Positions 270-58,068 of a DNA stretch of 64,000 nt are shown here, one piece after another (positions within the stretch are counted from its first letter, which is position 1; each line of letters starts with the position of its first letter). The translations under genes were made by a program, and so were the position numbers. Where the stretch lies: assembly GCA_049302075.1 (NCBI GenBank), contig JBAQLS010000046.1, positions 148,436-212,435 on the forward strand, in the 5' to 3' direction. Origin of the DNA: Carboxydocellales bacterium (GTDB lineage Bacteria; Bacillota; GCA-003054495; Carboxydocellales; JAJZTU01). Below the pieces are notes generated by a model. That model did no database searches and was not told where the DNA came from. It was given only the letters and a program-made list of their open reading frames with translations.

Positions 270-314
270 AAGTCCTCCTTGTTATTCTGGTCTTTTTGTC
301 TGGGCTGTGCTCTC

Positions 315-538
315 CGGTCGGGAACCTATCCCGGTTCGGTACTCTTAGCTCCATGCCTTGTAACTGTAAGCTCGTTGGGCTAATCAAAGCACCCAGACCT
401 CGCCAATTCGTCGTCCGTGACTCAGTGGCGAGGCGTCCGCCGTCCATGGCGGCCGGGGTGCTTTGATTGCCCGCCTCGCTAACAGTTACTACGGCACTCC
501 GCCATGAGTACCTACACCGGAACAGGTTCCCGACCTGG
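315..538 (+). repeat. Structured interspersed repeat, family 1, copy 1 (~224 nt, nested stems)
   Basis: Shares ccggtcgg...cccgg..ggtgctcttagctccatgc...ctacggcactccaccatgagcacc..ccgg..ccgacctgg with 23646-23869 and 46046-46270. The outer stem (ggtcgggaacct / aggttcccgacc) pairs with a copy-specific sequence. Confidence 0.7.
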
Positions 539-809
539 GTCATGACCGGGGCGCAGACCTGAGCACAGACCAGGCCAGAAATACTGCGTCGTCCGGGATG
601 CTTGGGAGGGTTATTTATGCTTTACGCTAGTCTCAAATGCTTTTAAGAATCCTTTATTGCCCTTTATAATATCTAATATATATAAACCTATATTGGGTCG
701 AAAGCTTCTATACTCGTTGCTTTACTAGTAATCTAATCCCCAACTCTTTCACGCCCATCCCCACCTTCTTTGCCCTTCCCACTCCCCAGCTTAACCTTGC
801 GGGTCTGGC

Positions 810-1055
810 CCAGGGACGTGGGTAGGTGGGATAAGGCGCGCCTATGCGTAGGTCGGCATTGGGCATGCATGCGGTGGAAACAGGAGGACGCAGGATCCAC
901 GTTGGCTTACAGCCCAATGTAGTCAGCGTACTCTATATCCAGTTAAACACTATCCTGGCAGCGGAACACATATATCCGAAGTCCCCTGTTTCCACCGGCC
1001 GGAGGCCGGCCGGTGGCATCAAGTGCGCCGTTCCCACCTACCCATGTCCCGGCAA
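810..1055. repeat. Long nested inverted repeats in the mraY-murD intergenic insertion (function unknown)
   Basis: ggacgtgggtaggtgggataaggcgcgcc (813-845) is complementary to tgcgccgttcccacctacccatgtcccgg (~1020-1052). Inside, gcggtggaaacagg (~861-876) pairs with cctgtttccaccggc (~987-1001). Confidence 0.4.
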
Positions 1056-1069
1056 TTAGACAGTCAAGT

Positions 1070-2148: not shown

Positions 2149-3612
2149 CTATTCTATTGACGCTGCTATTTCTTCCATTTTCATCCCCCGGGAACCCTTC
2201 ACCAGCACTACATCCCCCGGCTGCAGTATAGCTTGTAGCTGCCTGATGGCCTGCTCTTTTTCTGTACAGGCGAAAATTGACCTTTGCTTCATACCTCGGG
2301 TAGCTGCTTGTGCTGCTATCCATCCGGCTAATTCTCCTAGGGTAACTAAGCTGTCTAGGCCCAGGCTGGCTACAGTATCACCGATTGATCGGTGACCTTT
2401 TTCCGCCTGTTCCCCCAACTCCAGCATATTTCCTAAAACAGCTATCCGCTTACCCTGGCAAGGATATCCGGCCAGCACCTCCAGTGCTGCTCGCATCGAA
2501 GATGGGTTGGCATTATAGGCATCATTAATTACTGTCCAGGGCTTACCTGTCCTAATCTCCAGCCTCATTGCGGAAAGGGCTAACTCTGTTAACCCCTGGC
2601 CAATCTCCTCCTGGCTTAATCCTAACTCTAGCCCTACTCCAATTGCTGCTAAAGCATTTAAGACATTGTGCCGGCCGGGAACGGGTATCTGCACTGACAT
2701 TGGCTTATGTCCTGACACCTTCACCTTAAATTCACTATTGGTTGGCCCGGTCATTTGCCAGTCCGTGGCCTGTAAGTGATTGTTTTCCCCAAAGCCATAG
2801 TAAATGGCCTGACGGTCTAATCCTTCTCCCAGCTTACGCAGCCAGGGATCATCTCCATTTAAGATAGCTGCTCCTGTTGCCGGGAGTTCCGCCAAAAGTT
2901 CACCTTTAGCCTGAGCAATGTTTTCCATTGAACCCAACAGCTCTATATGGGCTTCCCCAATGTTGGAAATCACTCCAATGTCCGGCTGAGCAATCCGGGC
3001 TAGCTGCTGGATTTCCCCCCGGCCTCGCATCCCCATTTCCACAATTGCCGCTTGATGCTCCGGTCCTAGCTCTAATAAGGTTAAGGGCAGACCGATTTCA
3101 TTATTAAAATTGCCACCGGTCTTTAACACCCTGTACTTTTGTTCCAACACTGCGGCAATCATATCCTTGACACTAGTCTTCCCAGTACTGCCGGTAACCG
3201 CCACCACCGGGACTCCGGCTTTCCTGCGATTATACCCAGCTAAATGCTGTAATGCTTGGAGCGTATCTTCCACTAAAATAACCGGAATTGCAATATTTAG
3301 CTCCCTTGAGCTGCCAACCCCAAGCTTTGAGACGTCGGCCTGATGTAGCTCGCTTGTCTGGCTACTCTGAATACCATGTAATTTAGTCCAAGCCTCTGGT
3401 TGGCTGATGATTAGTGCCCCTGCTCCCCCAGCAATAGCCTGAGCCAAAAAATCATGGGCGTCAAACCGCTCTCCCTTTAAGGCTGCAAAAATGCTTCCCG
3501 GCCTTACTTTTCGCGTATCCGTGGAAACCAGATCAAACACCGCATCCGGGTCCCCCTGAATTATCCTTCCCCCTACCGAAGAGGCTATTTCTGTCCAGCT
3601 AAATTGGTACAT
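2149..3612 (-). CDS. murF: UDP-N-acetylmuramoyl-tripeptide--D-alanyl-D-alanine ligase MurF
   Basis: Mur ligase motifs (VTGSTGKTS, central and C-terminal Mur domains). The long ORF extends to 3636, but the ATG at 3612 (MYQFSWTEI...) has an AGGAGG SD and lies 2 nt after the murE stop. Confidence 0.9.
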   Translation of the reverse strand: MYQFSWTEIASSVGGRIIQGDPDAVFDLVSTDTRKVRPGSIFAALKGERFDAHDFLAQAIAGGAGALIISQPEAWTKLHGIQSSQTSELHQADVSKLGVGSSRELNIAIPVILVEDTLQALQHLAGYNRRKAGVPVVAVTGSTGKTSVKDMIAAVLEQKYRVLKTGGNFNNEIGLPLTLLELGPEHQAAIVEMGMRGRGEIQQLARIAQPDIGVISNIGEAHIELLGSMENIAQAKGELLAELPATGAAILNGDDPWLRKLGEGLDRQAIYYGFGENNHLQATDWQMTGPTNSEFKVKVSGHKPMSVQIPVPGRHNVLNALAAIGVGLELGLSQEEIGQGLTELALSAMRLEIRTGKPWTVINDAYNANPSSMRAALEVLAGYPCQGKRIAVLGNMLELGEQAEKGHRSIGDTVASLGLDSLVTLGELAGWIAAQAATRGMKQRSIFACTEKEQAIRQLQAILQPGDVVLVKGSRGMKMEEIAASIE

Positions 3613-3614
3613 GC

Positions 3615-5168
3615 TTAACCTCCTGTCTGCAAACACTGGCGAGCCACTGCCCGGTCATCAAAAGGCAGTGTTTTGTCCCCGATGATTTGATAGCTTTCGT
3701 GGCCTTTGCCAGCTATCAGCACCAGATCCTCCGGTCCGGCCATACTAATGGCATAAGCTATGGCCTCCCTGCGATCCAATACCTTAGCGTACTGCTCAGA
3801 CCCTACAAAATCTCTAATACCTGCTTCTATTTCCTCGATAATAACCACCGGGTCTTCACTCCGCGGGTTATCAGAGGTAATTATGGTATAATCACTCAGT
3901 CGGGCGGCAATGCTGCCCATAATCGGCCGCTTGGTCCGATCTCGGTCGCCGCCACAGCCAAACACTGTAATAATTCGCCCTAAGACAAATTGATTAGCGG
4001 TGTGCAACACATTTTCCAAGCTGTCCGGGGTATGGGCATAATCCACAATCACCCCGAAGCTTTGCCCTTCGTCAATTAGTTCAAAACGACCGGGCACTCC
4101 GGTAACCCCTTCCAACACCTGCTTAATTTCTCCTAAATCTATCTTTTCCAGCAAGCCCACACAAATCGCAGCCAAGGCGTTATAGACACTAAAGATACCC
4201 GTCATGCGTAATTTAAAGTCCGCTTTGCCCCAGGGGGTGGTCACCCCAAAGGATACCCCGCTGGCTTTGACCAAGACGTTGCTAGCCTTAACTGTTGCCT
4301 CACTTTTGATACCATAGGTAAGCACCTGTCCCCGGCTTTTTCCCTGGATAAAGCGTCCGGCCGGGTCATCGATATTAATAATACCATATTTCGGGTGTGC
4401 TTTCCCTCCTGTAGGGTTTAGACCGCTAAAGAGTTTAGTCTTGGCCGCCAGGTAGGCTTCCATATTTTCATGAAAATCCAGGTGATCCTGAGTTAAGTTG
4501 GTAAAAACCGCTATATCAAACTCAATGGCTTCAACCCGACCTAACTCCAGGGCGTGGGAGGATACCTCCATTACTCCATAATCCGCCCCTTTGTCCACCA
4601 TTTTGGCTAGCAGTTGTTGCAGCTCTAGTGGCAAAGGAGTGGTATTGTTAACTGGCAGCACTTCCTCGCCTATTTTGCTATGAATGGTGCCAATTAGTCC
4701 CACTCGATGTCCCCGGGCTTTTAACAGCGCTTCAATTAGATGAGTGCTGGTGGTCTTACCGTTAGTCCCCGTCACCCCAATCATGGTCATTTTCTGAGCC
4801 GGGAATTGGTAGAACCGGGCACTAACCCAGGCTAAAGCTGTTCTGGTGTTATCCACCTGTACCCAACATACCTTGTCCAGCACTTCTGGAGGAAGTCCCA
4901 AAGCTGTGGGGTCCTTTTCCACCAACAGCGCCGCTGCTCCTTGCTCCACCGCCTGGAGGATATAGTTATGCCCATCAACCTTATAGCCCACAATACAAGT
5001 AAACATAAACCCTGGTGCTACCTTCCGGGAATGATGAGCAAGCCCTAGGATTGGAGTTTGCAGCTCCCCTTGGCTTTGTTTTATTTGTAGGTCCTGTACC
5101 AAAGCTTGTAGTTTCATAATTTCCTGTCTTTGCACACCACCAGCCCCCTTGTTTCTAATTTTTGCCAT
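3615..5168 (-). CDS. murE: UDP-N-acetylmuramoyl-L-alanyl-D-glutamate--2,6-diaminopimelate ligase MurE
   Basis: Mur ligase with GVTGTNGKTT P-loop and the DNPR motif typical of DAP-adding MurE. An alternative start is possible at 5117 (MKLQALV...). Confidence 0.88.
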   Translation of the reverse strand: MAKIRNKGAGGVQRQEIMKLQALVQDLQIKQSQGELQTPILGLAHHSRKVAPGFMFTCIVGYKVDGHNYILQAVEQGAAALLVEKDPTALGLPPEVLDKVCWVQVDNTRTALAWVSARFYQFPAQKMTMIGVTGTNGKTTSTHLIEALLKARGHRVGLIGTIHSKIGEEVLPVNNTTPLPLELQQLLAKMVDKGADYGVMEVSSHALELGRVEAIEFDIAVFTNLTQDHLDFHENMEAYLAAKTKLFSGLNPTGGKAHPKYGIINIDDPAGRFIQGKSRGQVLTYGIKSEATVKASNVLVKASGVSFGVTTPWGKADFKLRMTGIFSVYNALAAICVGLLEKIDLGEIKQVLEGVTGVPGRFELIDEGQSFGVIVDYAHTPDSLENVLHTANQFVLGRIITVFGCGGDRDRTKRPIMGSIAARLSDYTIITSDNPRSEDPVVIIEEIEAGIRDFVGSEQYAKVLDRREAIAYAISMAGPEDLVLIAGKGHESYQIIGDKTLPFDDRAVARQCLQTGG

Positions 5169-5263
5169 TCATGGAAATTCTATACCTGAATCAAGAAAAG
5201 ACTCAGAACAAAGTGGAATAAGGGAATTCCAACTCCAACTCTGAGTCCTGCAAAAATTTTCAG

Positions 5264-7498
5264 TTATGGTGCTTCCTTGACCGCCCCTTCAGCGCCAGTA
5301 GGATACTGGGTTTGGTTTGAAGGCAAAGGTGCTAGAGTCGGTCCCCCTTGGGGCTGGTTGGGTGAGCCAAATTTGACTTTTACCACCGTACCCGCTCTAA
5401 CCTTGGTCCTGGGGGCAATACTTTGACTTTCGGCAACTCCGGAACCTTCCAGATCCATTTTTAAACCTGCTAACGCTAAGGTGGCTGCCGCCTCCCGGAG
5501 AGTTTTGCCAACTAGATTCGGTACTGAAACTATACTATCTCCCGGAACTCCTTGCGTAGATTTACCCAGGTACAGAGTAATCTTGGTGCCTTCCCCAATC
5601 TCAGCACCAGGCAGCGGAAACTGGCCTAACACTATTTTCCCTTCGCCTTCAGTGGTCCAGGAGAATTTCTCCTTATACAAAATATTCTGGGCCTCTCCCA
5701 AAGGCAGGTTGATCACTTGGGGAACTATTGCTACGGCCTTAGCCGGTTGTTCGAGTTTTGGCTTTAGCTTATCCGGGGTTAATTGAGGAGGAACCCCCAA
5801 GTATTTTAAGGTATCGCCTACTACCGCCTTAAATGCCGGGGCAGCTATCTGGCCTCCGTAATAGACCTGTCCTTGGGGCTCGTCTATAACCACCAGAGCT
5901 GCTATCCGGGGATTATCCGCCGGGGCAAAGCCGGCAAAAGAAGCAACATATTTACCCTGCTGGTATCCACCGGTAGGCATGGCTTTCTGGGCTGTACCCG
6001 TCTTGCCAGCTGCCCGGTAGCCTTCCAAATAGGCCTTTTCACCAGTTCCATTGGCTACCACACTTTCTAAAATCCCTGAGAGTTCCCGTGCTGTGGACTT
6101 GGAGATTACCTGTCTAACTTGTTTAGGCTGGATTTGCTGAACTTGACCGTTTACATCCCGAATTTCTTTAACAAGCTGAGGCTTCATTAGCACCCCGTCA
6201 TTAGCTACTGCAGCTACTGCGGTAATTAACTGGATGGCCGTAACTGCATTGGATTGGCCAATGGACATGGTAGCTAGGTCTAACTGGGTTGCTCTTTTGG
6301 GATTAACCAAAATACCTGTCGCTTCTCCGGGCAGGTCAATTTCCGTTTGTCGCCCAAAGCCAAAAGCCTGCAGATACTGGTTGAATTTCTCCACACCTAG
6401 AGCCAGGCCGATGGTGATAAAGCCAGGGTTACAGGAATTTTCTGCAACCTCAAGAAAGCTTAGGGCCCCATGTCCGCCTGCTTTCCAGCACTTGATTTTC
6501 TTACCTAAAACCTCTATATAACCAGGGTCATAAAACCGGTCATTGGGCTTAACCACCCCTTCTTCCAGAGCAGCGGCTGCCGTGATTACCTTAAAAGTTG
6601 AACCCGGTTCATAGGAATCAGAAACAGCGAAATTACGCCAAGTTTTTTGATCAAATTCCCAATATTTATTCGGGTTATAATCCGGGCGATTGGCCATGGC
6701 CAATATATCCCCGGTCTTGGGATCTATGATAATAATAGCGGCATTGAGGGGATTATAGGTTAACATAAGTGCATCTAATTCCCGCTCCACAAAATGCTGG
6801 ATGGTTTCGTCAATGGTCAGAACCAGACTTTTGCCTTCAATGGGAGGTATGTACTTAGACTCCCCATTGGGAATTTCCCGTCCGGTCGCATCCCGTTCCG
6901 AAACAATTTTTCCCGCTATGCCCTTTAATTCTTTATCCAAGGCCCCCTCTATCCCACCGGCGCCGTCAGCATCCGTCCTAGTGGCAAAGCCTAATACATG
7001 GGCCGCCAAATTGTCATTGGGATAGAAGCGGGAACTCTCCGGAATAAAGCGAATTCCTGTTAACTCTCCTTGTTTAGAGTTTTCCAGTTGTTTTAGCTGA
7101 TTAATTTTACTGTCTTCCACTTTCCGTTTGATCCAGACAAAACCCGTTTTCTTAGTTAATAATTTTTTAATAGCTTCCTTTTCCATCCCCAAAACTGTAG
7201 CCAGTTTGGCCGCAGTGGCCTCCGGGTCAATTATCCGTCTGGGTTCAGCAGCTACCGTTTCCGAGGTGATGCTCACCGCCAGTTCCTTGCCATTACGGTC
7301 ATAAATAGTTCCCCGTCGTGCTTCTACGGGGACTTCGCGCAAACGGTTATCAATTGCTTTATCGGTTAGCTCAGCGCCCTTGATAAACTGCAAATAAGCT
7401 AACCTGGACATTAGCAACAATAAAACCATTGATATTAGCGTCAACAGTATGGTAATTCTTTTTCGCATATCCACACTGGTGTTGTACAACTGCTCCAC
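5264..7498 (-). CDS. Class B penicillin-binding protein (FtsI/PBP2B/SpoVD family) with C-terminal PASTA domain
   Basis: N-terminal TM helix and dimerisation domain. Transpeptidase motifs STFK, SCN, KTGTA. The C-terminal ~60 aa is PASTA-like (VPNLVGKTLREAAATLALAGLK...). Sits in the dcw position of ftsI/spoVD. Confidence 0.88.
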   Translation of the reverse strand: MEQLYNTSVDMRKRITILLTLISMVLLLLMSRLAYLQFIKGAELTDKAIDNRLREVPVEARRGTIYDRNGKELAVSITSETVAAEPRRIIDPEATAAKLATVLGMEKEAIKKLLTKKTGFVWIKRKVEDSKINQLKQLENSKQGELTGIRFIPESSRFYPNDNLAAHVLGFATRTDADGAGGIEGALDKELKGIAGKIVSERDATGREIPNGESKYIPPIEGKSLVLTIDETIQHFVERELDALMLTYNPLNAAIIIIDPKTGDILAMANRPDYNPNKYWEFDQKTWRNFAVSDSYEPGSTFKVITAAAALEEGVVKPNDRFYDPGYIEVLGKKIKCWKAGGHGALSFLEVAENSCNPGFITIGLALGVEKFNQYLQAFGFGRQTEIDLPGEATGILVNPKRATQLDLATMSIGQSNAVTAIQLITAVAAVANDGVLMKPQLVKEIRDVNGQVQQIQPKQVRQVISKSTARELSGILESVVANGTGEKAYLEGYRAAGKTGTAQKAMPTGGYQQGKYVASFAGFAPADNPRIAALVVIDEPQGQVYYGGQIAAPAFKAVVGDTLKYLGVPPQLTPDKLKPKLEQPAKAVAIVPQVINLPLGEAQNILYKEKFSWTTEGEGKIVLGQFPLPGAEIGEGTKITLYLGKSTQGVPGDSIVSVPNLVGKTLREAAATLALAGLKMDLEGSGVAESQSIAPRTKVRAGTVVKVKFGSPNQPQGGPTLAPLPSNQTQYPTGAEGAVKEAP

Positions 7499-10883: not shown

Positions 10884-12170
10884 TTAACTTAAATAAACAA
10901 AATAAATATAGATATTAGCCATCACAATAGATAGCAGCATTAAGGGAAAACCCACTTTCATGAAACCCCAAAAGGAAATTAATACTCCGTTCTTTTCGGC
11001 GATTCCAGCCACAATTACATTGGCGGAAGCACCTATTAGTGTCCCGTTACCTCCAAAACAGGCCCCCAAGGCCAAGGACCACCACAGCGGTTCCAGATTA
11101 GTTATCCCGCCTAGTTGACCCATCGTCTTAATCATAGGAATCATAGTGGCCACGAAAGGAATATTATCTATTAGAGCGGAGGCTAGCGCCGATAACCATA
11201 ACACTAACACCGATGTAACAACTGGTTCCCCGCCGGTCAAATTTAATGCACCCTGGGCAATTGCGTGAATAATACCCACCTTTTCAATACCACCAACCAG
11301 GATAAATAACCCGGCAAAAAAGAAAATTGTCGGCCATTCCACCGTTAATAGTATATCTTCCGGTTCCTCCCTGGCTATTATCATCAACAAGATCGCTCCC
11401 GATAAGGCAACTACCGAGGAATCCCAATGGAGCATTTGATGTAACCCAAAGCCAATAATTGTCAAGCCTAAAACAAACAGACTTTGCTTCATCAAAGCAT
11501 AATCTTTTATTTCTCCCAATGGGTCTATCGACATAAGTTTAGCGGCAAGCTCCGGATTATACACCATTTCTTTGCGATACATCCAATAAAGGATACCCAT
11601 TGTAACAATCATCACTAGAACGGCGATAGGTGCCAAATTAATGACAAAATCCATAAAGCTAAGTTCCGGTACAGCGCTCCCTATCATGATGTTGGGCGGG
11701 TCACCGATTAAGGTGGCTGTTCCGCCTATATTGGAGGCTAATATTTCGGTCACGAGAAATGGCATGGGGTTAAGTCTTAAGGTATTTACTATGGAAAAGG
11801 TCACCGGAACTACCAGCAAAACAGTGGTAACATTATCCAAGAGAGCTGACAAAACCGCAGTTATGACTGCCATTGAAACTAATATTTTCAGGGGTTTTCC
11901 TTCCGCCCAAATTGCAGCTTTGATGGCCAAATATTCGAAAACACCTGACCTGCGGGTAATCCCCACAATTATCATCATCCCGATTAATAAGCCAATAGTA
12001 TTTAATTCCAGGGCTTTTTTTGCTTCTTCAAAGTTGATAATTGTGAGCAGGAGCATTAATAGCCCTCCAGCCAGGGCAGCGGTACTCCGGTGAATTTTTT
12101 CAGAAATAATTAAGGCATACGTGGTTATAAAAATTATGGTGGCAAACACAAGTGGGGTATTCAATTCCAT
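10884..12170 (-). CDS. ArsB/NhaD-superfamily permease (anion/Na+ transporter-like)
   Basis: 428-aa polytopic membrane protein with about 12 TM segments and internal repeat architecture, typical of the ArsB/NhaD/CitMHS ion transporter superfamily. Confidence 0.7.
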   Translation of the reverse strand: MELNTPLVFATIIFITTYALIISEKIHRSTAALAGGLLMLLLTIINFEEAKKALELNTIGLLIGMMIIVGITRRSGVFEYLAIKAAIWAEGKPLKILVSMAVITAVLSALLDNVTTVLLVVPVTFSIVNTLRLNPMPFLVTEILASNIGGTATLIGDPPNIMIGSAVPELSFMDFVINLAPIAVLVMIVTMGILYWMYRKEMVYNPELAAKLMSIDPLGEIKDYALMKQSLFVLGLTIIGFGLHQMLHWDSSVVALSGAILLMIIAREEPEDILLTVEWPTIFFFAGLFILVGGIEKVGIIHAIAQGALNLTGGEPVVTSVLVLWLSALASALIDNIPFVATMIPMIKTMGQLGGITNLEPLWWSLALGACFGGNGTLIGASANVIVAGIAEKNGVLISFWGFMKVGFPLMLLSIVMANIYIYFVYLS

Positions 12171-21362: not shown

Positions 21363-21430
21363 GGCTATTTCCCCCTTTCTTTATCAAAATTGTAGCATAG
21401 GCATTGCAAGAAATCAAACATAGAATTTTA

Positions 21431-21553
21431 CAGGCTGTTGAAATTCCCCGTCCAGCGTTGTCAGCAGAATCGCCAAGATCCTCAACGTACAGCCAGTACG
21501 CCTGCGGCCTTGGCGATTCTGCTTCCTAGCTGGACGAGTTTTTCAACAGCCTG
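21431..21553 (-). repeat. Near-palindromic structured repeat, family 2, copy A (~123 nt, inverted relative to the other copies)
   Basis: caggctgttgaaattccccgtccagc...ccaaggccgcaggcgtactggctgtacgttgagg...gctggacgagtttttcaacagcctg. Shares core and ends with copies at 32684, 47316, 51871 and 57943. Flanked by a 16-bp direct repeat aaacatagaattttac (21414-21429 and 21594-21609). Confidence 0.7.
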
Positions 21554-21607
21554 CCTGGGGTCATAGCTTTCCGCCTAGCTCCGCTAGACGCATTGAAACA
21601 TAGAATT

Positions 21608-23572
21608 TTACTTTTCCTTGGCACGCTCCATAACTGCCTTCCAGATTCTCGCTGGATAGGACCCACCCACAACTCCCTGTAGATAATGCTTCCGGTCAGT
21701 CCGGTCATAACCCACCCAGACTGCAGCAACTAACTCCGGGGTATAGCCAACAAACCAGGCATCCTTATTACCCTTAATGCCCCGAAACTCCGGGGTGTTC
21801 GGTAGTTGGGTAGTTCCTGTCTTGCCGGCCGCCGAAAAATTATACCTAGCTGTTATAATAGCGTCTTGCCCAGCACCTCGCCCAATGGCTTGCCCATATA
21901 CTGCTGCCTCCACCGTCAATCTGGCCTCACGTCCGGTGCCGGAGTTTACTGCTTCCGCTAATAAACCGGTCATCTTTTGGGCGGTATCCTCAGTTATCAC
22001 CTGTTCCACCCTCAGTTTTTTCCCTTTAATCTCCAGTCCATTACTACCCACCAACCGTATAATTGTAGTTGGTTCTCGGTATATTCCCTCAGCCCCAAAA
22101 GTACCAAAGGCAGCCGCCATTTGATAAGGAGAAACTCCCCCTGTTAAACCCCCCAGAGCCAAAGACAGGTTGCGGTCCCCTTCCACTAAGGGCAAGCCTA
22201 GTCCAACTCCCATCCGAAAACCGGAGTTTACCCCAATCTCCTTCAACAGCTTAACTGCATATACATTGACCGAATTACGCAAAGCAAAGGTCATATCCAT
22301 GGAGCCATAACTATGACCCCCATAATTCTGAGGTCTGTAACCCCCTAAAGCGGTAATGCTATCATCCAGACGGTAACTGACCGGGTAGCCTTTTTCTAAG
22401 GCTGGAGCATAGACTACCAATGGTTTAATGGTCGAACCCGGTTGACGTTTTAACTGAGTTGCCCGGTTAAAAGCCCGGACTGTAGGATAATCCCGCCCTC
22501 CCACTAAAGCCCGTACTTCCCCTAGATGATAGTCCACCACTGCAATCGCCCCCTGAACCTGGACTCCATTCACACCGGCTGGAAACTGGCTGCCATCTGC
22601 CAGCACTGCCTCTGCCGCTCCTTGCACTTTGGGATCCAGGGAGGAATAAATGCTGTAACCTCCGGTATATAGCTGTTCCTCTTCAATCCCATATCTATCC
22701 CGGGCTTCCCGGATAACCTGATCCACAAAATAGGGAAACCGGTAACCCGCCAAATTCCTCAGCCCCACCACCTGAACGGCCGCGGCCCTGGCCTTATCTG
22801 CATCCATTGGAGGAATCAGCCCATAACCCTCCATTAAGGTGAGCACCAAATTCCTTCTGATTGCAGCAGCCTGCATATTGCGGTAGGGTGAATAAAGTCC
22901 CGGATTTTTGGCAATCCCGGCCAACAAAGCTGCCTCTTCCGGTTTTAGCTTGTCTACATCTTTGCCATAATAAAGCCGGGAAGCTGCTTGCACTCCATAA
23001 ACCCCGTGACCAAAATAAATCCGGTTTAAATACAGCCCTAGAATTTCGTCCTTAGAATATCTTAACTCTAGCTCTCTAGCCATCACTAACTCTTTGAGCT
23101 TTCGTTGCCAGGTCTTCTCCTTTGAAAGAAAAGCATTGCGGGCTAACTGCTGCGTGATGGTGCTCCCGCCTTGGGACAGTTCTTCCTCCCGAATATTTAC
23201 TAGTGCAGCCCTGGCAATCCCAATTACATCTAAGCCGGGATGGTCATAAAAGCGAACATCTTCCACCGCAAGAAAGGCATCTTTTAACTGTTGAGGAATA
23301 TGGTCATACTTAACAACCACCCTATTTTCCGGGCCATGAAGCTGGGCGATTAACATCCCCGTCCGGTCATAAACCATGGTGTTACTAGCCGCCACCAAGT
23401 CCCCATTAACCCATTGGTGTTTGTACTGCTCATAAAAAGCCATCCCCAGCCCTGTAACCATGGCCCCAACTGCCAACAGGCTAAAGATAATCAACAGTAT
23501 CAAGCCTAGGACCAGCTGCTTAAAGGATACTTTACTCCGCTGTGACTTGTGCCCCATCTGTCGTTGCCCCAT
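21608..23572 (-). CDS. Class A penicillin-binding protein (PBP1A-type, bifunctional glycosyltransferase/transpeptidase)
   Basis: GT51 motifs (EDVRFYDHPGLD, RQGGSTITQQL), then transpeptidase STIK...KTGTT. The ORF runs to 23728 through the family-1 repeat. The ATG at 23572 (MGQRQMGHKSQRS... then TM) is the likelier start. Confidence 0.85.
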   Translation of the reverse strand: MGQRQMGHKSQRSKVSFKQLVLGLILLIIFSLLAVGAMVTGLGMAFYEQYKHQWVNGDLVAASNTMVYDRTGMLIAQLHGPENRVVVKYDHIPQQLKDAFLAVEDVRFYDHPGLDVIGIARAALVNIREEELSQGGSTITQQLARNAFLSKEKTWQRKLKELVMARELELRYSKDEILGLYLNRIYFGHGVYGVQAASRLYYGKDVDKLKPEEAALLAGIAKNPGLYSPYRNMQAAAIRRNLVLTLMEGYGLIPPMDADKARAAAVQVVGLRNLAGYRFPYFVDQVIREARDRYGIEEEQLYTGGYSIYSSLDPKVQGAAEAVLADGSQFPAGVNGVQVQGAIAVVDYHLGEVRALVGGRDYPTVRAFNRATQLKRQPGSTIKPLVVYAPALEKGYPVSYRLDDSITALGGYRPQNYGGHSYGSMDMTFALRNSVNVYAVKLLKEIGVNSGFRMGVGLGLPLVEGDRNLSLALGGLTGGVSPYQMAAAFGTFGAEGIYREPTTIIRLVGSNGLEIKGKKLRVEQVITEDTAQKMTGLLAEAVNSGTGREARLTVEAAVYGQAIGRGAGQDAIITARYNFSAAGKTGTTQLPNTPEFRGIKGNKDAWFVGYTPELVAAVWVGYDRTDRKHYLQGVVGGSYPARIWKAVMERAKEK

Positions 23573-23645
23573 TTCCCATGTATGTTCAAGCTTGATTTTA
23601 TCATAAAAAAACAACCAAGACATGTTCTGAGTTGAAAAACATTGA

Positions 23646-23869
23646 CCGGTCGGATACAGGTCCCGGCTGGGTGCTCTTAGTTCCATGCTTAGCGGCTCTA
23701 AGCTGGTTTGGATAATAAAATTGACCAACCTCGACGATACGGCATCCTTGCCTAGGCGTTGAGGTTTCCGACGTCCTTGTCGGAAAGGTCGATTTTATTA
23801 CCCAACTGCGCTAAGAGCCGCTACGGCACTCCACCATGAGCACCCCACCGGAACCGGTATCCGACCTGG
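23646..23869 (+). repeat. Structured interspersed repeat, family 1, copy 2
   Basis: Same architecture as 315-538. Outer stem ggtcggatac / gtatccgacc. Inner hairpin stems carry two G-U pairs when read on the + strand. Confidence 0.7.
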
Positions 23870-23920
23870 CGGGTTTTTGGGGAGATGGCGGGGTGGGGTA
23901 TTTAGATAAAGCCGGGGTTG

Positions 23921-26413
23921 CTATGGCCGCCCATGACGGCGTCCTTTGTCCTTATCTCTATCATTAGGAAGATTGCCATCTGTGCTGCCTGAGAGGGGTG
24001 GTGTAGTATCGCTAGTAATGCCGCCAGGCGACCCCAAAGGATCTGTAACTCCTGTAGGGTCGGTGGAACCTGAGTCATTGGGAACTTTTCCTCCTGTTGG
24101 ACCTCCGGCCCCACTACCGTGGCTGACTATATCCCCAGCATTACCAGTACCTCCATCGGTTCCCGAATTACCTGGACTTCCTGGGCTACCAGGACTCCCT
24201 ATTGTTCCCGTATTGCCTGAATTACCTGTATTACCTGTATTACCTGAATTAACCGTATTGCCGGTACTGCCATTTGCCCCGGTAGTGTTTTGCTCCCCGG
24301 TGGGTTTTCCTCCCCCTGGGGTCTGCTGACCTTTGCTCCCAGGCGAAACGCCCTCCCCCTGGCCAGAGTGCCTAGCCAGTTCTTCCGGTGATAGTGAATC
24401 CCAGACCCGAACATCCTTACGGTAGATGAATTTCCCTTGATACTTGGGGAAACTCTTTTTAGGTACGCCGGCTAAGGCTTGTTCCATCACCTTTTTCCAT
24501 AGCACTGCCGGATATGAACCGCCAACTACGCCCCGCAGGTAATGGGCTGTATCGGTGCGGTCATAGCCAATCCATACCGCTGCAACCAGTTCGGGTGTAT
24601 AACCGACAAACCAAGCATCCTTATTACCGCTGATTTTTTTAAATTCCGGGCTGTCGGGAAGCTGGGTGGTACCCGTCTTTCCGGCCACGGGTCGATCCAA
24701 CCTGGCCCTGGTCCCTGTTCCTCCTCGGACTACCTCTTGGAGCATTTCCGTCATTACTGCAGCGGTATGGGAATGCATTACTTTATTTACTTTGGGCAGG
24801 TCGTCAAAAACCACCGCCCCGGAGTAATCAGTAATCTTCACTATGGCGTGAGGCTCCACTTGAATTCCCTGGTTGGCAAAAGCCCCATAGGCTGAGGCCA
24901 TTTGCAGCGGTGAAACCCCGTGGGTCAGTCCGCCTAGAGCCAAGGGCAGTACTTTGTCCGAGGGTACCAGTTCAAAGCCTAACTTGCAGGCAAAATTATA
25001 GCCTGTTTCCAGCCCAATTTTAGCTAATAATTTTACCGCACAAATATTAACTGAATACTTCAGCGCTGAAGCCATGGTCATATACCCTCGAGAACCACCG
25101 CTATAGTTTTCCGGCGCATATTTCCCAAAACGAACGGGAAAATCATCCAGCAGCATATAAGGAGGGTACTTGGCCTCCAAAGCTGGTCCGTACACTGCTA
25201 TCGGCTTAAAGGTTGACCCAGGCTGACGCCGGGAGTCTACCGCCCGGTTAAAGCCCCGCTTGACATCATAGCCTCTGCCCCCTACTAAAGCTTTGATTTC
25301 TCCATTATTATAATCCAACACAGCAACCGCGCCCTGTACTGGCAGCTTATCTGGGCCTGTGGATGGAAAATTATAATTGTACGACCACACCGTCTGAGCA
25401 GCCTGCTGAACTTTGCTATCCAGAGCGGTGTAAATCCTCAACCCCCCGCCGTAAACCTCTTTTTCACTGATTCCCAGGCGCTTCCCGGCCTCATCTACCA
25501 CAGCATCCACATAATAAGGATACTCATAGGGATTGTTCAGCGGGGTGGAAGCTAATTTGCAGCCATCCAGTTTAGCCTGCTCTTCCTGCTTCTTAGTAAT
25601 AAACTCGTTTTCCTCCATTAGACTGAGGACAGTCTCCATCCTTTGCCTGGCCTCCTCCGGCTCCCGAAAGGGGGAATACCGATTAGGCGCTTTTAGTAAA
25701 CCAGCTAAAACAGCAGCCTCCGGCAGGTTTAAGTCCTTGGCAGTTTTGCCAAAATAAGTCCGGGCGGCAGCCTCCAAGCCATAAGCCCCATGGCCAAAAT
25801 AAATGCGGGTCAGGTACATATTTAAAATCTCTTCCTTGGAATACTTCTTCTCTAGTTCCAGAGCCAAAAGAACTTCTTTGATTTTGCGATTATAGGTTTT
25901 CTCCGGGGTTAGCAGGGAGTTTTTCACCAACTGCTGGGTAATAGTACTGGCCCCTTCGACAATCCGCCCCTCCCGGAAGTTAGCTACCATGGCTCTAACC
26001 ACAGCTTCCAGATCAACCCCCATATGATGATAAAAGCGCACATCCTCAGTAGCTACAAAAGCATCCTTCACCACCTGGGGCAGCTCCCCAGGCAATGGCA
26101 GGCGGTCCTCCACCCCTTTAAGTATGGCAATGACCCTGCCATCCCGATCATAGATGATGGTATTAAAAGCTGTAGCCAAGTCCGCCGCAGTCCAAGCCGG
26201 AGTGGCCGGAAGGGCCATGGCTACTACTATGTATCCTAAGAAAAAAGCAAGCAGCAGAGTAAAGAAAAAAACGCCCGTCCCCCCCGATAGCATAAACCTT
26301 TTACCCTTTTTGTCCTTTGACTTATCCGTTTGCTTAACCGTTGACGTATCTGTCGACTTACCTGTTGGCTTATCTGTTGGCTTATCTGTTGGCTTATCTG
26401 TTGGTTCAACCAT
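23921..26413 (-). CDS. Class A penicillin-binding protein (second PBP1A paralog) with Lys/Thr/Asp-rich N-terminal tail and Gly/Ser/Thr/Asn-rich C-terminal tail
   Basis: GT51 (EDVRFYHHMGVD, GASTITQQL) plus transpeptidase (STFK, KTGTT). ATG at 26413 follows an AAGGGGTGAG SD. 12-bp tandem repeats at ~26344-26403 encode (PTDK)n. The ~190-aa C-terminal tail is low complexity. Confidence 0.85.
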   Translation of the reverse strand: MVEPTDKPTDKPTDKPTGKSTDTSTVKQTDKSKDKKGKRFMLSGGTGVFFFTLLLAFFLGYIVVAMALPATPAWTAADLATAFNTIIYDRDGRVIAILKGVEDRLPLPGELPQVVKDAFVATEDVRFYHHMGVDLEAVVRAMVANFREGRIVEGASTITQQLVKNSLLTPEKTYNRKIKEVLLALELEKKYSKEEILNMYLTRIYFGHGAYGLEAAARTYFGKTAKDLNLPEAAVLAGLLKAPNRYSPFREPEEARQRMETVLSLMEENEFITKKQEEQAKLDGCKLASTPLNNPYEYPYYVDAVVDEAGKRLGISEKEVYGGGLRIYTALDSKVQQAAQTVWSYNYNFPSTGPDKLPVQGAVAVLDYNNGEIKALVGGRGYDVKRGFNRAVDSRRQPGSTFKPIAVYGPALEAKYPPYMLLDDFPVRFGKYAPENYSGGSRGYMTMASALKYSVNICAVKLLAKIGLETGYNFACKLGFELVPSDKVLPLALGGLTHGVSPLQMASAYGAFANQGIQVEPHAIVKITDYSGAVVFDDLPKVNKVMHSHTAAVMTEMLQEVVRGGTGTRARLDRPVAGKTGTTQLPDSPEFKKISGNKDAWFVGYTPELVAAVWIGYDRTDTAHYLRGVVGGSYPAVLWKKVMEQALAGVPKKSFPKYQGKFIYRKDVRVWDSLSPEELARHSGQGEGVSPGSKGQQTPGGGKPTGEQNTTGANGSTGNTVNSGNTGNTGNSGNTGTIGSPGSPGSPGNSGTDGGTGNAGDIVSHGSGAGGPTGGKVPNDSGSTDPTGVTDPLGSPGGITSDTTPPLSGSTDGNLPNDRDKDKGRRHGRP

Positions 26414-26810
26414 TAGCTCACCCCTTATCCCGGTGCACAAAAAAAACCGGACAATAATGAGCATAACAGTAAATATCTGTAAAATCAAACATAATTATCC
26501 TGCAAAAAACACAAAAAAAAGCAACCCTCACCAGTTCCCCCTTTTTTCCAAGCCATAGCCTTCCCTTTCAAAAATCGCTTATGAAAAAGCATATCCCAAA
26601 TTTAGATAAAAACGCAACCCCTCTAGCCTATTGTTATAGTCATCAAAATGCCAGCTCAAAACTAATGATAAAACTGTCTCTTAAGGTAGTTATTAAAAAT
26701 TTCTCCAGAAGTTTTCTCACAACCCGTAAAGGTTGTGTTTGCGCTTTTCAACCCTTATGGGTTGTCCTATTATAATTAAATAGTCATGTTCGAACAGTCC
26801 GTCCCCCTCC

Positions 26811-28102: not shown

Positions 28103-28492
28103 CTAGGTAAGCTGAAGTTTTTGATGTACAAAATTCATCACATGGTCAGCATCAACAACAGCTTTTTGCATATCGCTTTCTAAAATTTCAATCTCAAAAG
28201 GATATCTTGGCTGTACACCATATGGCGTAAGATTTACACAAGATTGACTTATCTCATCAAAGGTTTCATCAATATCGGCACACATTTTACATATTAATCT
28301 TAAGTCGTGAGTCCTAGGTGGCTCTACATCTTGATGTATAAGATAGCCTTTTAGCACTTTCTCTGCTGCTTGCTCACAGTGATAGCAAATGATTTCTATG
28401 GGAACCGGGCGCATATCTAAGAGATACTTTGCACAGCTGATATCTTTGTTTGCAAAATCAAGCCATTCTTTGACTATGTTGATTTTGTCCAT
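28103..28492 (-). CDS. HEPN-domain protein (toxin component of HEPN/MNT pair)
   Basis: 129 aa, all-helical. AEKVLKGYLIHQDVEPPRTHDLRLI fits the HEPN R-x(4-6)-H region. Overlaps the upstream MNT gene by 35 nt. Confidence 0.8.
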   Translation of the reverse strand: MDKINIVKEWLDFANKDISCAKYLLDMRPVPIEIICYHCEQAAEKVLKGYLIHQDVEPPRTHDLRLICKMCADIDETFDEISQSCVNLTPYGVQPRYPFEIEILESDMQKAVVDADHVMNFVHQKLQLT

Positions 28493-28805
28493 GCAGCATC
28501 ACCCCATCTCTGGCAACTGTTCTTTCGATAGTAGGCAACAGCTTGCGCTGATGAAAATTACTGGCTCTGCTTACGAGGATATCAATTGGCTTCTTTTGTT
28601 CTTTGTAGATGGCACTGCCAATGAGCTGCATGGCTTCAATTGGACGAATGCCGCCATCAGGAATCACTATATAAAGGTCGAAATCACTATCTTCTGAGGG
28701 CGTACCATAAGCATAGGAGCCAAAGAGGTATATCGCATCGGCTTCAACTGTATTCAGAATCGTTTGCTTAATATTTTCCAACTCATTGCTCGTTTGGATA
28801 TTCAT
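28458..28805 (-). CDS. Minimal nucleotidyltransferase (MNT; antitoxin component of HEPN/MNT pair)
   Basis: IYLFGSYAYGTPSEDSDFDLYIVIP is the GS...DxD polymerase-beta-type nucleotidyltransferase motif. Confidence 0.85.
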   Translation of the reverse strand: MNIQTSNELENIKQTILNTVEADAIYLFGSYAYGTPSEDSDFDLYIVIPDGGIRPIEAMQLIGSAIYKEQKKPIDILVSRASNFHQRKLLPTIERTVARDGVMLHGQNQHSQRMA

Positions 28806-29227
28806 ATCATCACCTACTTTATATGCTAATTATATCCATTTCCAAACTTTCGTCAAGCCAAGACGGTTAAGCATTTTGGTTTTTATACTCACGCAATACA
28901 GCCTCATTAGCCCGGAACAGATGGGCAGCAAGTTCTGTGCTGCCCATCTGTTCAAGTATTTTTTTCTTTTTCTCTAAGCCTTTTCGTTTATGTAGTATTG
29001 GAGCCTATCTCAACCATTTTCATGACGTCACGAAAATGGTCTACCATATTGATATTGCTGTTTTCACAGGCTTCCTTGGCTTTTTCTATAACATTATAGA
29101 AATTTTCCCAGCGGGCATATTCAAGAACAGGAGCCAATTCCCTTGCCAGCCAATATTCCTCTCCATATTCATTAAGGTGCTTAATTTCCTCAAAGGTTTT
29201 ATCGCTATACCTCTGAATATTACTCAT
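28806..29227 (-). pseudogene. DinD-like (DNA-damage-inducible protein D) gene, truncated/frameshifted
   Basis: 28988-29227 encodes the DinD N-terminus (FEEIKHLNEYGEEYWLARELAPVLEYARWENFYNVIEKAKEACENS...) and then stops. A DinD-like continuation (LEQMGSTELAAHLFRANEAVLREY) sits in another frame. A 13-bp perfect palindrome lies at 28918-28950. Confidence 0.5.
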
Positions 29228-32422: not shown

Positions 32423-32683
32423 TACTCATCCTCCTTAATAAATTCGCTAATTATTTATTTAATTTGACTTCACAACTTATAGCATACCTTATGTGTCACT
32501 ATTTAGCTAGCAAACACTGAATAATTTTTCAAATCGGAATTTTTCAAATCATTTTTTGACATCTGGCAGTACCAGTCCTTCCACATTTTTCAAGCGATCC
32601 ACAACACCACACACTCCACATGTGCTGTATGTGTGAACGTGAACGTGAACATATCCACCGACCAAACCACTATTAGACCCGTG

Positions 32684-32806
32684 TAGGCTGTTGAAAAACC
32701 CGTCCAGCTAGGAAAAATCATTGCCAAGGCCGCAGGTGTACTGGCCGTACATCGAGGACCTTGGCAATGATTTTGACAACGCTGGATGGGGAATTTCAAC
32801 AGCCGT
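32684..32806 (+). repeat. Near-palindromic structured repeat, family 2, copy B
   Basis: taggctgttgaaaaacccgtccagc...ccaaggccgcaggtgtactggccgtacatcgagg...gctggatggggaatttcaacagcc. The middle stem keeps pairing with a different sequence (aaatcattgccaagg / ccttggcaatgattt). Preceded by a (gtgaac)x3 microrepeat. Confidence 0.7.
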
Positions 32807-32807
32807 A

Positions 32808-33761
32808 CTAGATGGTCTCCCATTTTCCGCATCTATCCCCCCACCGGGCCAGCAGCTGTTTATCCACCGAAATATTAATTACCTCGCACAGGTTGGAGCA
32901 CCCCTGGCACTCAAAGCTGCTAGCCCGGTAATCCATATCACTTACCGCAAAGCCCTTAAAGGCCGTCTCCTCCTTATGCTTAACCTCTTCTCTGGCTAAC
33001 AAAGCTACTCCGATGGCCCCCATTACATTAAAATGCTCCGGGATGATGATCTCCTTGCCCAACGCCTTCTCAAAAGCCGCCCTAATCCCCTGGTTGGCAG
33101 CCACCCCACCCTGGAACACTACCGGGGCCAAAACCTCCTTGCCTTTCCCCACATTGTTTAAGTAATTCCGCACCAAGGCTTCACACAGCCCGGCAATAAT
33201 ATCTTCCGTATTATGACCCATCTGTTGTTTATGGATCATATCCGACTCGGCAAATACCGAACACCGCCCGGCAATCCGCACCGGGGTTTTGGACTGTAAC
33301 GCCATATCCCCGAATTCCTCAATAGGAATATTCAGCCGGGAGGCCACTTGATCCAGGAATGACCCTGTTCCTGCCGCACATACCGTATTCATGGCAAAAT
33401 CCGTTACCACCCCGTGGCGCAGCAGAATAATCTTGGAATCCTGTCCCCCGATTTCTAGAATAGTCTGGGCCTGGGGCACCAGATGGGTAGCAGCCACCGC
33501 ATGAGCGGTAATTTCATTTTTGACTACATCCGCTCCCACCATTACGCCGGTAAGGTGGCGGGCGCTGCCGGTAGTCCCTACCCCACAAATCTGAAAATCC
33601 GCAGGCAAAAGGTTAGCCATTTCCCCCAGACCCTGTTTCACAGCCATAATGGGCTGGCCTTTAGTGCGGATATAAATACCTTGCAGTACCTTCCCCTGAG
33701 CATCTATCACCACCACATTGGTACTAACTGAGCCTACATCAATTCCTAAATAGCCGTCCAT
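32808..33761 (-). CDS. BadF/BadG/BcrA/BcrD-type ATPase (acyl-CoA dehydratase-activase family)
   Basis: LGIDVGSVSTNVVVID is the ASKHA phosphate-1 motif, GVGTTGS the phosphate-2 motif, plus conserved Cys pairs. 317 aa. Confidence 0.8.
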   Translation of the reverse strand: MDGYLGIDVGSVSTNVVVIDAQGKVLQGIYIRTKGQPIMAVKQGLGEMANLLPADFQICGVGTTGSARHLTGVMVGADVVKNEITAHAVAATHLVPQAQTILEIGGQDSKIILLRHGVVTDFAMNTVCAAGTGSFLDQVASRLNIPIEEFGDMALQSKTPVRIAGRCSVFAESDMIHKQQMGHNTEDIIAGLCEALVRNYLNNVGKGKEVLAPVVFQGGVAANQGIRAAFEKALGKEIIIPEHFNVMGAIGVALLAREEVKHKEETAFKGFAVSDMDYRASSFECQGCSNLCEVINISVDKQLLARWGDRCGKWETI

Positions 33762-42660: not shown

Positions 42661-42738
42661 TGTAATACAATGCAATCAGGAATAAAGGATAAGGAGCCTG
42701 AATAATTCGGGCTCCTTATCCCTAGGAAGGGAATTTGT

Positions 42739-44470: not shown

Positions 44471-45178
44471 CTACGATGCTTTTCTACCGTATTTGAATAC
44501 CAGGCCACCTTTATAGGCAGGTATTTCCACTAGGTCCACCTTGGAAATTTTAATTATTACTCCAGCCCCCTCTAGGTCAGCAATTAGACCATAGGTCACT
44601 TTCAGCATGTTTTCCATATTCTCTGGGTCCCCAATTGCCGAAATCTCAAAGGGTATACCCTGAGTGCGGTTTATAGGTAATTTGTTCACCAACAGGTTAC
44701 GTCCTGCTTCATGGACCGAGGTGTTAGCCACCACCCGTTGGCCATTGACAGCTATAGCTTCCGCCCCTGCATAACGTAGAATGTTAATAATATCCTTAAT
44801 ATCCCCGGAAAAAACCTGAGTAGCCGTAGTCTTCCGATCATCCATAGTTACGTACAGTCCAGGACCTCGTAGTGGTACCTCCCCAGTTAGCATTTGTATT
44901 TGGGTTATCTCCTTAGAAACCTCCGCCGACCTACCCGTCACCACAACTCCACTTTTATTACGTTCCAGCTCCTGACGCAGCTTGGTAACCCGGCCAGTAA
45001 GCTGGGTCTGCTTTAACTTGGCCTGGTTTAAAACCGCAATCATGGATTGATAACGCTGGGTGGAATTATTAACTTGTTTGCGGATTTCCATTGTCGCCTT
45101 TGCCTGGGTCGATAGCAGTAAGCCCAACACAATACTAACCGCAAAAAGCGAAAGATAAAAGTGCCAATAACGAGACAA
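44471..45178 (-). CDS. DUF881 (YlxW/YlxX-like, division-cluster associated) protein
   Basis: N-terminal TM segment, coiled coil and DUF881 core. Tandem with a paralog. Confidence 0.75.
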   Translation of the reverse strand: MSRYWHFYLSLFAVSIVLGLLLSTQAKATMEIRKQVNNSTQRYQSMIAVLNQAKLKQTQLTGRVTKLRQELERNKSGVVVTGRSAEVSKEITQIQMLTGEVPLRGPGLYVTMDDRKTTATQVFSGDIKDIINILRYAGAEAIAVNGQRVVANTSVHEAGRNLLVNKLPINRTQGIPFEISAIGDPENMENMLKVTYGLIADLEGAGVIIKISKVDLVEIPAYKGGLVFKYGRKAS

Positions 45179-45927: not shown

Positions 45928-46045
45928 TATACCTCCTGAAGTTAACTAAGGAATAACCCTCCCTGCTAGGTTACCCGTAAAAAACTTACATAATTCAGGT
46001 TAGTGTGGAGTTTACCATTTGCAGTTTGCGTTTGGGGTCTAGTCT

Positions 46046-46270
46046 CCGGTCGGTTGCCTAACCCGGCGGGGTGCTCTTAGCTCCATACCGTGCGGCTCTA
46101 AGCACAGATGGCCTAATAAAATTGACCGACCTGGACAATACGGCATCCTTGCCTAGGTGTCCAGGTTGCCGCCTTCCGTGGCGGCAAGGTCAATTTTATT
46201 GGCCATCTGCGCTTAGAGCCGCTACGGTACTCCACCAGGAGCACCCCACCGGGCCAGGCAACCGACCTGG
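46046..46270 (+). repeat. Structured interspersed repeat, family 1, copy 3
   Basis: Same architecture as copies 1 and 2. Outer stem ggtcggttgcc / ggcaaccgacc differs in sequence from the other copies but still pairs. Middle stem gcggctctaagc / gcttagagccgc. Inner hairpin loop atacggcatccttgcctagg is shared with copy 2. Confidence 0.7.
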
Positions 46271-46529
46271 GCTGTTTCATATGACCTGGGCTGTATCTTT
46301 GGCCCGGGCTAAACCTTCTGCACTATCCAAGCCGTATAACCTGCTTCTGTAAGTTGTTTTGATGGGTGTGGGGGTGTTGCTTAGTGAAAAACACCAGAGC
46401 ACCTGACTTACATGAGGCTATCAATATAGAGCTTAATACCTCTTGGAATTTCTTATATGCCTGAGTAACTTGCGCTTCCGGTCCCAAATAAGGTTGATAC
46501 CATCCTTTTTTTACTGTCAAAGCAGTAAA

Positions 46530-52004: not shown

Positions 52005-52007
52005 AAC

Positions 52008-58067: not shown

Positions 58068-58068
58068 T

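Follow-up and report, generated by a model that had tools for sequence, protein, structure and literature searches.

A probable TwoAYGGAY-class RNA element in the mraY–murD gap of a Carboxydocellales bacterium

The mraY–murD gap and its conserved core

The subject of this analysis is a 64,000-nt stretch of DNA from a Carboxydocellales bacterium (contig JBAQLS010000046.1, positions 148,436 to 212,435), referred to below as the window, and in particular the interval between mraY and murD in its dcw cluster, which contains one copy of a repeated hairpin element, a probable member of the TwoAYGGAY class of RNAs. All of the genes at the left end of the window lie on the minus strand, and the gap occupies positions 270–1069 (800 nt). 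The MraY homologues that were found, at 98% identity and below, all match Pfam Glycos_transf_4. The first-pass annotation, made from the sequence alone, had reported an 800-bp separation without a credible open reading frame (ORF) in a place where the two genes usually adjoin. Both observations hold. The ORFs of the gap (94, 71, 69, 56, 55 and 50 aa) gave no Pfam match even at E values up to 1, and in related genomes, designated here by locus numbers, the corresponding gap is 62–63 nt (L001, L082–L084), 26 nt (L085), 10 nt (L086) or 37 nt (L088).

Because relatives whose MraY is 69–84% identical have only 10–63 nt at this position, the 800 nt are a lineage-specific insertion in the dcw operon, one that accounts for a puzzling interruption of an operon that is among the most compact in bacteria. 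No similarity was found between the gap and plasmids or phages. The idea that the gap is the remnant of a decayed protein-coding gene is close to refuted, given the absence of Pfam matches, the lack of any gene between mraY and murD in all seven related dcw clusters, and substitutions that are compensatory in stems and do not follow codon positions.

Read in the direction of the operon, the mraY stop codon (1070) is followed by a long hairpin (1054–801), a G-run stretch (~790–728), an AT-rich stretch (~720–601), the element (540–312), a linker of 31 nt (311–281), the Shine–Dalgarno sequence and the murD start codon (269). The repeat copy noted earlier at 315–538 is real, and its limits are placed here at 312–540.

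Copy 1 matches the Rfam family TwoAYGGAY (RF01731) with 47.8 bits over positions 346–504 of the minus strand, the curated gathering score of that family being 43 bits; against R1, our own model of the element built in this analysis, it scores 235.6 bits. RF01731 belongs to clan CL00106 (Csr/Rsm-binding), as does CsrC (Rfam). The earlier statement that no known non-coding RNA (ncRNA) family is present in the gap is contradicted by this match, an outcome that the first-pass annotation had itself named as refuting its interpretation. The only further Rfam matches in the gap were sub-threshold ones to mir-5985 on a GC palindrome, and these are chance matches.

In its published description (Weinberg et al. 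2010, PMC2864571), the TwoAYGGAY motif consists of a closing P1 stem, often very long, and two neighbouring terminal hairpins whose loops have the form A-Y-GGA-Y. The fold predicted for copy 1 corresponds to this description. On the minus strand, positions 310–542 fold with −148.3 kcal/mol (z −13.2 versus shuffled sequence) into an interrupted stem of ~45 bp with a symmetric GGA/GGA internal loop, topped by two adjacent apical hairpins whose loops are ~29 nt apart. The scores of copies 1 and 3 above the cut-off, the loops, the long closing stem, the covariation, the tandem-GA feature of the stem, the presence of several copies per genome (as in the Rfam seed) and the Clostridia-type lineage are all shared with RF01731. 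Points of difference are a closing stem that is ~30 nt per side longer than in the Rfam model, loops of the form A-A-GGA-Y or A-C-GGA-A in copies 2 and 3, and the location of the copies within operons, each immediately followed by a gene in the same orientation; no gene-context annotation is given in the 2010 TwoAYGGAY alignment file. Judged by its score and predicted structure, copy 1 is very probably a TwoAYGGAY-class element. The core of the gap is a further case of a known RNA family and not a new class of RNA.

Covariation was assessed in a structural alignment of six members, namely the three copies of the window and those of L081, L091 and L085. The consensus has 90 pairs, 44 of which are changed on both sides, and 95.4% of the cells are paired; in the outer helix alone (34 pairs) the value is 96%. 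The three window copies by themselves show compensatory changes in 26 of the 90 pairs. None of 500 shuffles reached the covariation values, and far lower values resulted when the partners were slid by 1–3 columns. It is also apparent that the apical loops are conserved: 10 of the 12 loops in the six members read C-A-N-GGA-N-G, and a further one, GCAGGACG in L085, is shorter with AGGA kept. In copies 2 and 3 the loops AAGGAC, AAGGAU and ACGGAA retain A-N-GGA-N, with the Y positions relaxed.

The operon sense strand is favoured by two measures. The element is 19 kcal/mol more stable on that strand (−148.3 kcal/mol for minus versus −129.4 for plus), and the alignment contains 26 G-U cells versus 9 A-C cells.

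Table 1. Positions of the genes, RNA elements and repeats in the window
Feature	Position	Strand	Remarks
murD, 5′ part	1–269	minus	ATG 269–267, remainder beyond window edge; Pfam MurD-like_N, E 6.7e-14
murD Shine–Dalgarno, AAGGAGGA	273–280	minus	Read from sequence; 31 nt 3′ of element end
Probable TwoAYGGAY-class RNA element, copy 1	312–540 (229 nt)	minus (operon sense)	Rfam, fold, model R1, covariation
Closing stem of copy 1	517–539 paired with 314–334	minus	
GGA/GGA internal loop of copy 1	within 489–503 and 342–357	minus	
Apical hairpin 1 of copy 1	437–452	minus	Loop AUGGAC, 447–442
Apical hairpin 2 of copy 1	398–434	minus	Loop ACGGAC, 418–413
Fast-evolving spacer	541–800		AT-rich ~601–720 (33% GC); G-run-rich ~728–790 on minus strand
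Second long hairpin	801–1054 (254 nt)		Nested inverted repeats; single occurrence in window
mraY	1070–2035 (longest ORF to 2056)	minus	TGA stop 1070–1072; ORF list
murF	2149–3636	minus	
Tandem class A penicillin-binding protein (PBP) genes	21608–23560 and 23921–26488		Element copy between
Element copy 2	23644–23872	minus	R1 255.1 bits; RF01731 42.7 bits, 0.3 under cut-off (relaxed filters)
Tandem DUF881 genes	44471–45178 and 45214–45924		Element copy upstream of first DUF881 gene
Element copy 3	46044–46273	minus	R1 262.5 bits; RF01731 56.7 bits (relaxed filters)
135-nt hairpin family	21428–21563, 32674–32808, 47308–47443, 51872–52006, 57941–58076	minus, plus, plus, plus, plus	

Selection on the element and the remainder of the gap

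The nearest MraY in the species-representative collection is 83% identical and derives from a Bacillota metagenome-assembled genome (MAG); closer relatives were found by protein search, and one source attributes the closest PBP homologue to a Carboxydocellales bacterium. In one of these relatives, L081 (an ENA contig; MraY 98% identical, MurD N-terminus 97% identical), the gap is 706 nt long and includes the second hairpin as well as the element (223.7 bits). Between the window and L081, 220 of the 229 positions of the element agree (96% identity). The corresponding values are 84% for the second hairpin, 81% over aligned columns for the spacer (with 97 gap columns), and 90 and 88% for the third codon positions of mraY and murD, respectively. 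Among the nine positions at which the two elements differ, four belong to two compensatory pairs, and two more alter a loop while leaving A-N-GGA-N intact. Since the element is 96% identical versus 81–90% in the neighbouring segments and third codon positions, purifying selection acts on it and not on the remainder of the gap; the spacer and the hairpin at 801–1054 evolve at about the neutral rate. The gap is, by this comparison, not uniform, with constraint on only 229 of its 800 nt, about a quarter. Its earlier treatment as one unknown RNA must therefore be abandoned, the conserved core being a described Rfam family and the constrained portion so limited.

The nested inverted repeats that had been pointed out in a region of ~250 nt are genuine. 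Their arms pair at 813–831/1032–1050 (19 nt, 95% complementary) and 872–884/985–997 (13 nt, 100% complementary), and the GC palindrome lies at 987–1021. Positions 780–1069 are much more stably folded than shuffled controls (z −4.5 for the minus and −7.5 for the plus strand). In L081 the inner helix is decayed. No other copy of this hairpin was found in the window or in any locus except the L081 orthologue. R1 gives the hairpin 33 bits on the plus strand, as compared with ~20 bits for unrelated hairpins of a second repeat family described below, and this score reflects hairpin geometry only. The proposal that it is a degenerate inverted copy of the element was rejected, being unproven, since its alignment to the copies gives z ≤1 versus shuffled sequence. 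A pairing of 581–594 with 883–896 was also considered, and rejected when it was seen not to be maintained in L081. The G-run stretch between the two hairpins of the gap is made up of GGGG and GGG tracts on the minus strand (plus-strand GC skew −0.57); it is shorter in L081, where it is still rich in G-tracts, and could form a G-quadruplex.

As an alternative to a structured spacer, the first-pass annotation had suggested an antisense or independent ncRNA transcribed from inside the operon, and it had listed a promoter-like sequence on the plus strand, TTGCCC-16 nt-TATAAT. The promoter does not stand as described: TTGCCC (657–662) is situated just 2 nt from TATAAT (665–670), which a consensus scan pairs, with a 16-nt spacer, with TTAAGA (643–648). 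A transcript from this site (643–670) would run through the 801–1054 hairpin into the 3′ end of mraY. In its favour, TTAAGA-16-TATAAT agrees with 10 of the 12 consensus positions, a similar TTAAGA-17-TATATA is present in L081 (alignment read by eye), and the hairpin is more stable on the plus strand (−147 versus −131 kcal/mol). Promoter-like sites in this AT-rich stretch are, however, at chance level (4 observed versus 2.4 ± 1.8 expected in shuffled sequence), the hairpin diverges at the neutral rate noted above with its inner helix decayed in L081, and the only A-C mismatch that speaks for the plus strand corresponds to an ordinary G-C pair in L081. An independent antisense RNA must be regarded as highly improbable. 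On the sense strand, a promoter scan of the gap gave no match, and sigma-54-like and sigma-70-like promoters that could be picked out by eye upstream of the element were dismissed when they proved not to be conserved in L081.

Distribution of the element and its genomic neighbourhood

Two further copies of the element are present in the window, and the three are only 70–84% identical to each other. Copy 2 lies between two tandem class A PBP genes, both matching Pfam Transgly and Transpeptidase, 51 nt past the upstream stop codon and 73–85 nt before the downstream start codon. Copy 3 precedes two tandem genes matching Pfam DUF881, with 119 nt between it and the first of them; an exact look-up of the DUF881 protein gave no record. 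No target-site duplication or common flanking motif was detected in the aligned flanks of the copies.

The PBP–PBP site is filled in L091, a strain of 94% identity, by an orthologous copy at positions 865–1102 of that locus (231.6 bits). As compared with copy 2 of the window, 38 columns differ and 10 pairs are changed on both sides. The L091 copy has helix variants in common with copies 1 and 3 of the window, a mosaic-like pattern that hints at gene conversion, replacement or exchange between copies. At the same site, no element was found in L090 or L092 (PBP 77–78% identical), and the gap in L090 is just 98 nt.

Other members were found in more distant loci, at other positions. In L085 the element (145 bits) is upstream of a patatin gene beside mraZ; in L086 (63.5 bits) its tip is truncated and it lies between murG and murC in antisense orientation; and in L020, a Selenomonadales MAG, it is 45 nt upstream of murG (48 bits), both loops being AUGGAC. 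These related loci were gathered through MraY, so that their closeness to dcw clusters is a sampling effect. A second hairpin is situated next to the L085 copy, at 1227–1426. The murG–murC gap of L086 (5177–6130, 955 nt; MraY 74% identical) contains two related hairpins in inverted orientation (5185–5387 and 5908–6000), with short direct repeats in the spacer. A pattern search with GGAGTNCCGTAG-N(120–150)-ATGGANCTAAGAG gave no match in genome contigs or JGI metagenomes. A looser pattern gave six metagenome matches, none of which is a member; one of them, L094 (39.7 bits), is an unrelated repeat of the GCATATGC type.

This distribution bears on the proposal that the element is a selfish hairpin repeat acting at the level of DNA, of the miniature inverted-repeat transposable element (MITE) or REP/REPIN type, which would be spread, as single-stranded or double-stranded DNA, by a transposase encoded elsewhere, with the hairpin and its conserved unpaired bases serving for recognition by the enzyme and the RNA having no role. 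The window contains three copies in 64 kb together with an unrelated family of 135-nt hairpins in five copies; the mraY–murD and PBP–PBP sites are filled in the lineage and empty in sister species; related copies occupy other sites and orientations in L085, L086 and L020; hairpins are clustered in the window gap, L085 and L086; and in Psychromonas ingrahamii the TwoAYGGAY seed sequences occur in several copies and have repeated flanks. Moreover, G-T wobble in single-stranded DNA would yield the same strand bias. Set against this, the divergence among the copies of one genome indicates that there has been no recent burst, the target-site duplication or common flanking motif is not seen, and Pfam annotation revealed no transposase gene in the window. 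The orthologous copy is 96% identical versus 81–84% for the neighbouring non-coding DNA, which points to constraint at the locus and not only on a master copy, and the ANGGAN loops are kept as far as the Selenomonadales genome and the gammaproteobacterial members of the Rfam family. A purely selfish origin is, on these data, doubtful.

The element can also be compared with established repeats, namely REP/BIME/REPIN, ERIC and Correia (NEMIS). Like them, the element is a dispersed, multi-copy, imperfect palindrome in intergenic or intercistronic positions, present or absent among close relatives and clustered with other hairpins, and an effect on mRNA processing would be expected. Unlike it, those repeats are usually near-identical within a genome and confined to a single lineage, and for several of them transposases, or terminal repeats with target duplications, are known, whereas the copies of the element, at their 70–84% identity, are held together by covariation and their loop motif is common to several phyla.

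Each of the three window copies is followed by a cell-envelope gene (murD, a class A PBP gene and DUF881, respectively), a type to which ~13 of the 54 genes in the window belong, and the rough chance of this is 0.014. These three copies are the sole unbiased sample, and the placement is suggestive. On this basis one might envisage a regulatory leader, or a riboswitch, that is dedicated to peptidoglycan and cell-division genes, with the L020 copy 45 nt upstream of murG as an additional example. Matches in loci gathered via MraY are, however, necessarily near the dcw cluster, the L085 copy precedes a gene for a patatin-like phospholipase and the L086 copy is antisense. In addition, the element is absent from the orthologous genes in sister species, its spacing from the start codon varies between 42 and 119 nt, and there is no expression platform (neither a terminator nor sequestration of the Shine–Dalgarno sequence). 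Such a dedicated leader is very unlikely; in a riboswitch or gene-specific leader, neither the position of the element nor the set of downstream genes would be expected to vary as it does here. The mraW RNA motif, the leader of the actinobacterial mraW-ftsI-mur operon (Weinberg et al. 2010), is likewise a structured RNA in or ahead of a cell-wall cluster. It differs in being upstream of mraW, restricted to Actinobacteria and single-copy, and it gave no Rfam match in the gap.

A possible CsrA-docking role and other features of the window

With regard to function, the reading that we favour is that the TwoAYGGAY element is read through from mraY, most likely within the dcw operon mRNA, and that it serves there as a docking site for a CsrA-type dimer. 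Taken as a whole, this statement is given about an even chance of being correct (a probability of roughly 0.5).

Its first part, transcription of the element together with the operon, is likely. A scan of the gap revealed no terminator-like site on the sense strand, either from mraY to the element or from there to murD, and the short distance between copy 2 and the preceding PBP stop codon was also counted in favour of read-through. The earlier view that the dcw polycistronic mRNA carries a structured spacer fits with these results, as it does with the 19 kcal/mol strand advantage and the excess of G-U over A-C cells.

The second part, binding of CsrA, is suggested by the loops and is put forward tentatively. 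The high-affinity site of CsrA/RsmE is an ANGGAN hexaloop, with the SELEX (systematic ligand evolution by exponential enrichment) consensus RUACARGGAUGU (PMC7652899), and the loops of the element agree with both. TwoAYGGAY was proposed in 2015 as a CsrA-binding RNA of Clostridia, with tandem-GA pairs in its stem (PMC4333381); no paper reporting an experimental test of TwoAYGGAY–CsrA binding was found in the literature. The motif had been judged not to be cis-regulatory by its original authors (PMC2864571). In the arrangement envisaged here, the stem, with its GGA/GGA internal loop of the tandem-GA type, would present the two C-A-N-GGA-N-G hairpins, and one CsrA/RsmE-type dimer would clamp both loops. 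The element would thereby form a CsrA docking or titration module carried by the mRNA, 31 nt before the ribosome-binding site of murD, and the long double-stranded stem would also separate the mraY and murD portions of the transcript as a barrier or a processing site. The AT-rich spacer and the 254-nt hairpin would be passengers.

The resemblance to the CsrB/CsrC/RsmX/Y/Z sponges extends to the GGA in ANGGAN hairpin loops, to membership in clan CL00106, and to neighbouring loops whose spacing, ~29 nt here, fits one CsrA dimer. The sponges, however, are stand-alone small RNAs with many short hairpins and their own promoter and terminator, whereas the element consists of two loops atop a long stem, lacks transcription signals and is dispersed in mRNAs, where its binding is predicted.

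Several observations weigh against the docking proposal. A tblastn search with CsrA revealed no csrA gene within the 64-kb window. The second apical loop of the L091 copy, UUAGGGAUAA, is off consensus. The alignment used for the covariation analysis had been fitted to the structure of the model itself, so that the pair counts are somewhat inflated. The family has been gained and lost between related species at unrelated sites, as a selfish repeat would show. Finally, the loops are 130–170 nt away from the murD Shine–Dalgarno sequence, with which the element forms no pairs in any of its parts, so that a direct effect on murD translation is not evident.

A role of the RNA that involves no protein recognition of the loops should also be considered. 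The stem might be an RNase III site, or a 5′ stabiliser against RNase J, uncoupling the stability of the mraY and murD mRNAs, and the loops would then be purely structural. The length and near-perfection of the stem are consistent with this, as are the intercistronic positions of copies 1 and 2 and of the L020 copy and the lack of a terminator between copy 1 and its neighbours. ERIC and Correia repeats act as RNA processing or stability elements on their own transcript. This explanation leaves unaccounted for the conservation of C-A-N-GGA-N-G across distant taxa in the presence of freely covarying stems, and it is considered unlikely.

The docking reading can be extended to a broader, speculative and improbable proposal, in which, in this Carboxydocellales-type Firmicute, TwoAYGGAY modules would have been recruited into peptidoglycan and division mRNAs (murD, class A PBP and DUF881 genes; murG in a Selenomonadales genome) as CsrA docking sites, either coupling cell-wall synthesis to the CsrA–FliW motility checkpoint or forming a distributed CsrA sponge. 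To our knowledge, the FliW protein is the sole established CsrA antagonist in Firmicutes, and we know of no titrating RNA there. If correct, the proposal would provide the first such RNA antagonist or target module of CsrA in that group.

TwoAYGGAY is an orphan RNA family, and the window supplies three diverged test loci for it, with purifying selection where an orthologue could be compared and with natural controls in the sister species that lack the element at the same sites. These are clean loci for the CsrA hypothesis in Firmicutes, with a possible link to cell-wall genes. There is also a caution for annotation: repeats of this kind are annotated as small ORFs and may cause breaks in metagenome assemblies; the contigs of two close relatives are only ~3 kb long.

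The unrelated repeat family mentioned above consists of hairpins of ~135 nt in five copies, 71–86% identical, with the consensus AGGCTGTTGAAA...TTTCAACAGCCT. In four of them the plus strand, which is antisense to the neighbouring genes, gives the more stable fold, and none was found in the loci of relatives. Because this second five-copy family is also present in the window, the genome is rich in intergenic hairpin repeats.

Other RNA features were observed as well. A weak Rfam match to CsrC is present at 42667–42825 on the plus strand (27.5 bits, versus a cut-off of 61). It covers a leader rich in GGA (CAGGAA, AAGGAU, AAGGAG) that has a strong hairpin and precedes an ABC1-kinase gene; this match probably reflects composition only. 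A c-di-GMP-I riboswitch aptamer (67 bits, full model) is located at 62212–62298 on the minus strand, and the next minus-strand ORF of at least 100 aa, ~450 nt downstream, is at 60072–61760. The gene at those positions encodes a chemotaxis receptor (methyl-accepting chemotaxis protein), which hints at motility. Among the related loci, L002 (a Bacillota MAG) contains a group II intron catalytic domain (RF00029, 58.4 bits) at 11645–11718, ~2.3 kb downstream of mraY. In the window, a HEPN and nucleotidyltransferase gene pair of the toxin–antitoxin type occupies 28103–28805 on the minus strand, and beside it, at 28911–28965, lies a perfect 16-bp hairpin with a T-run, which resembles a bidirectional terminator.

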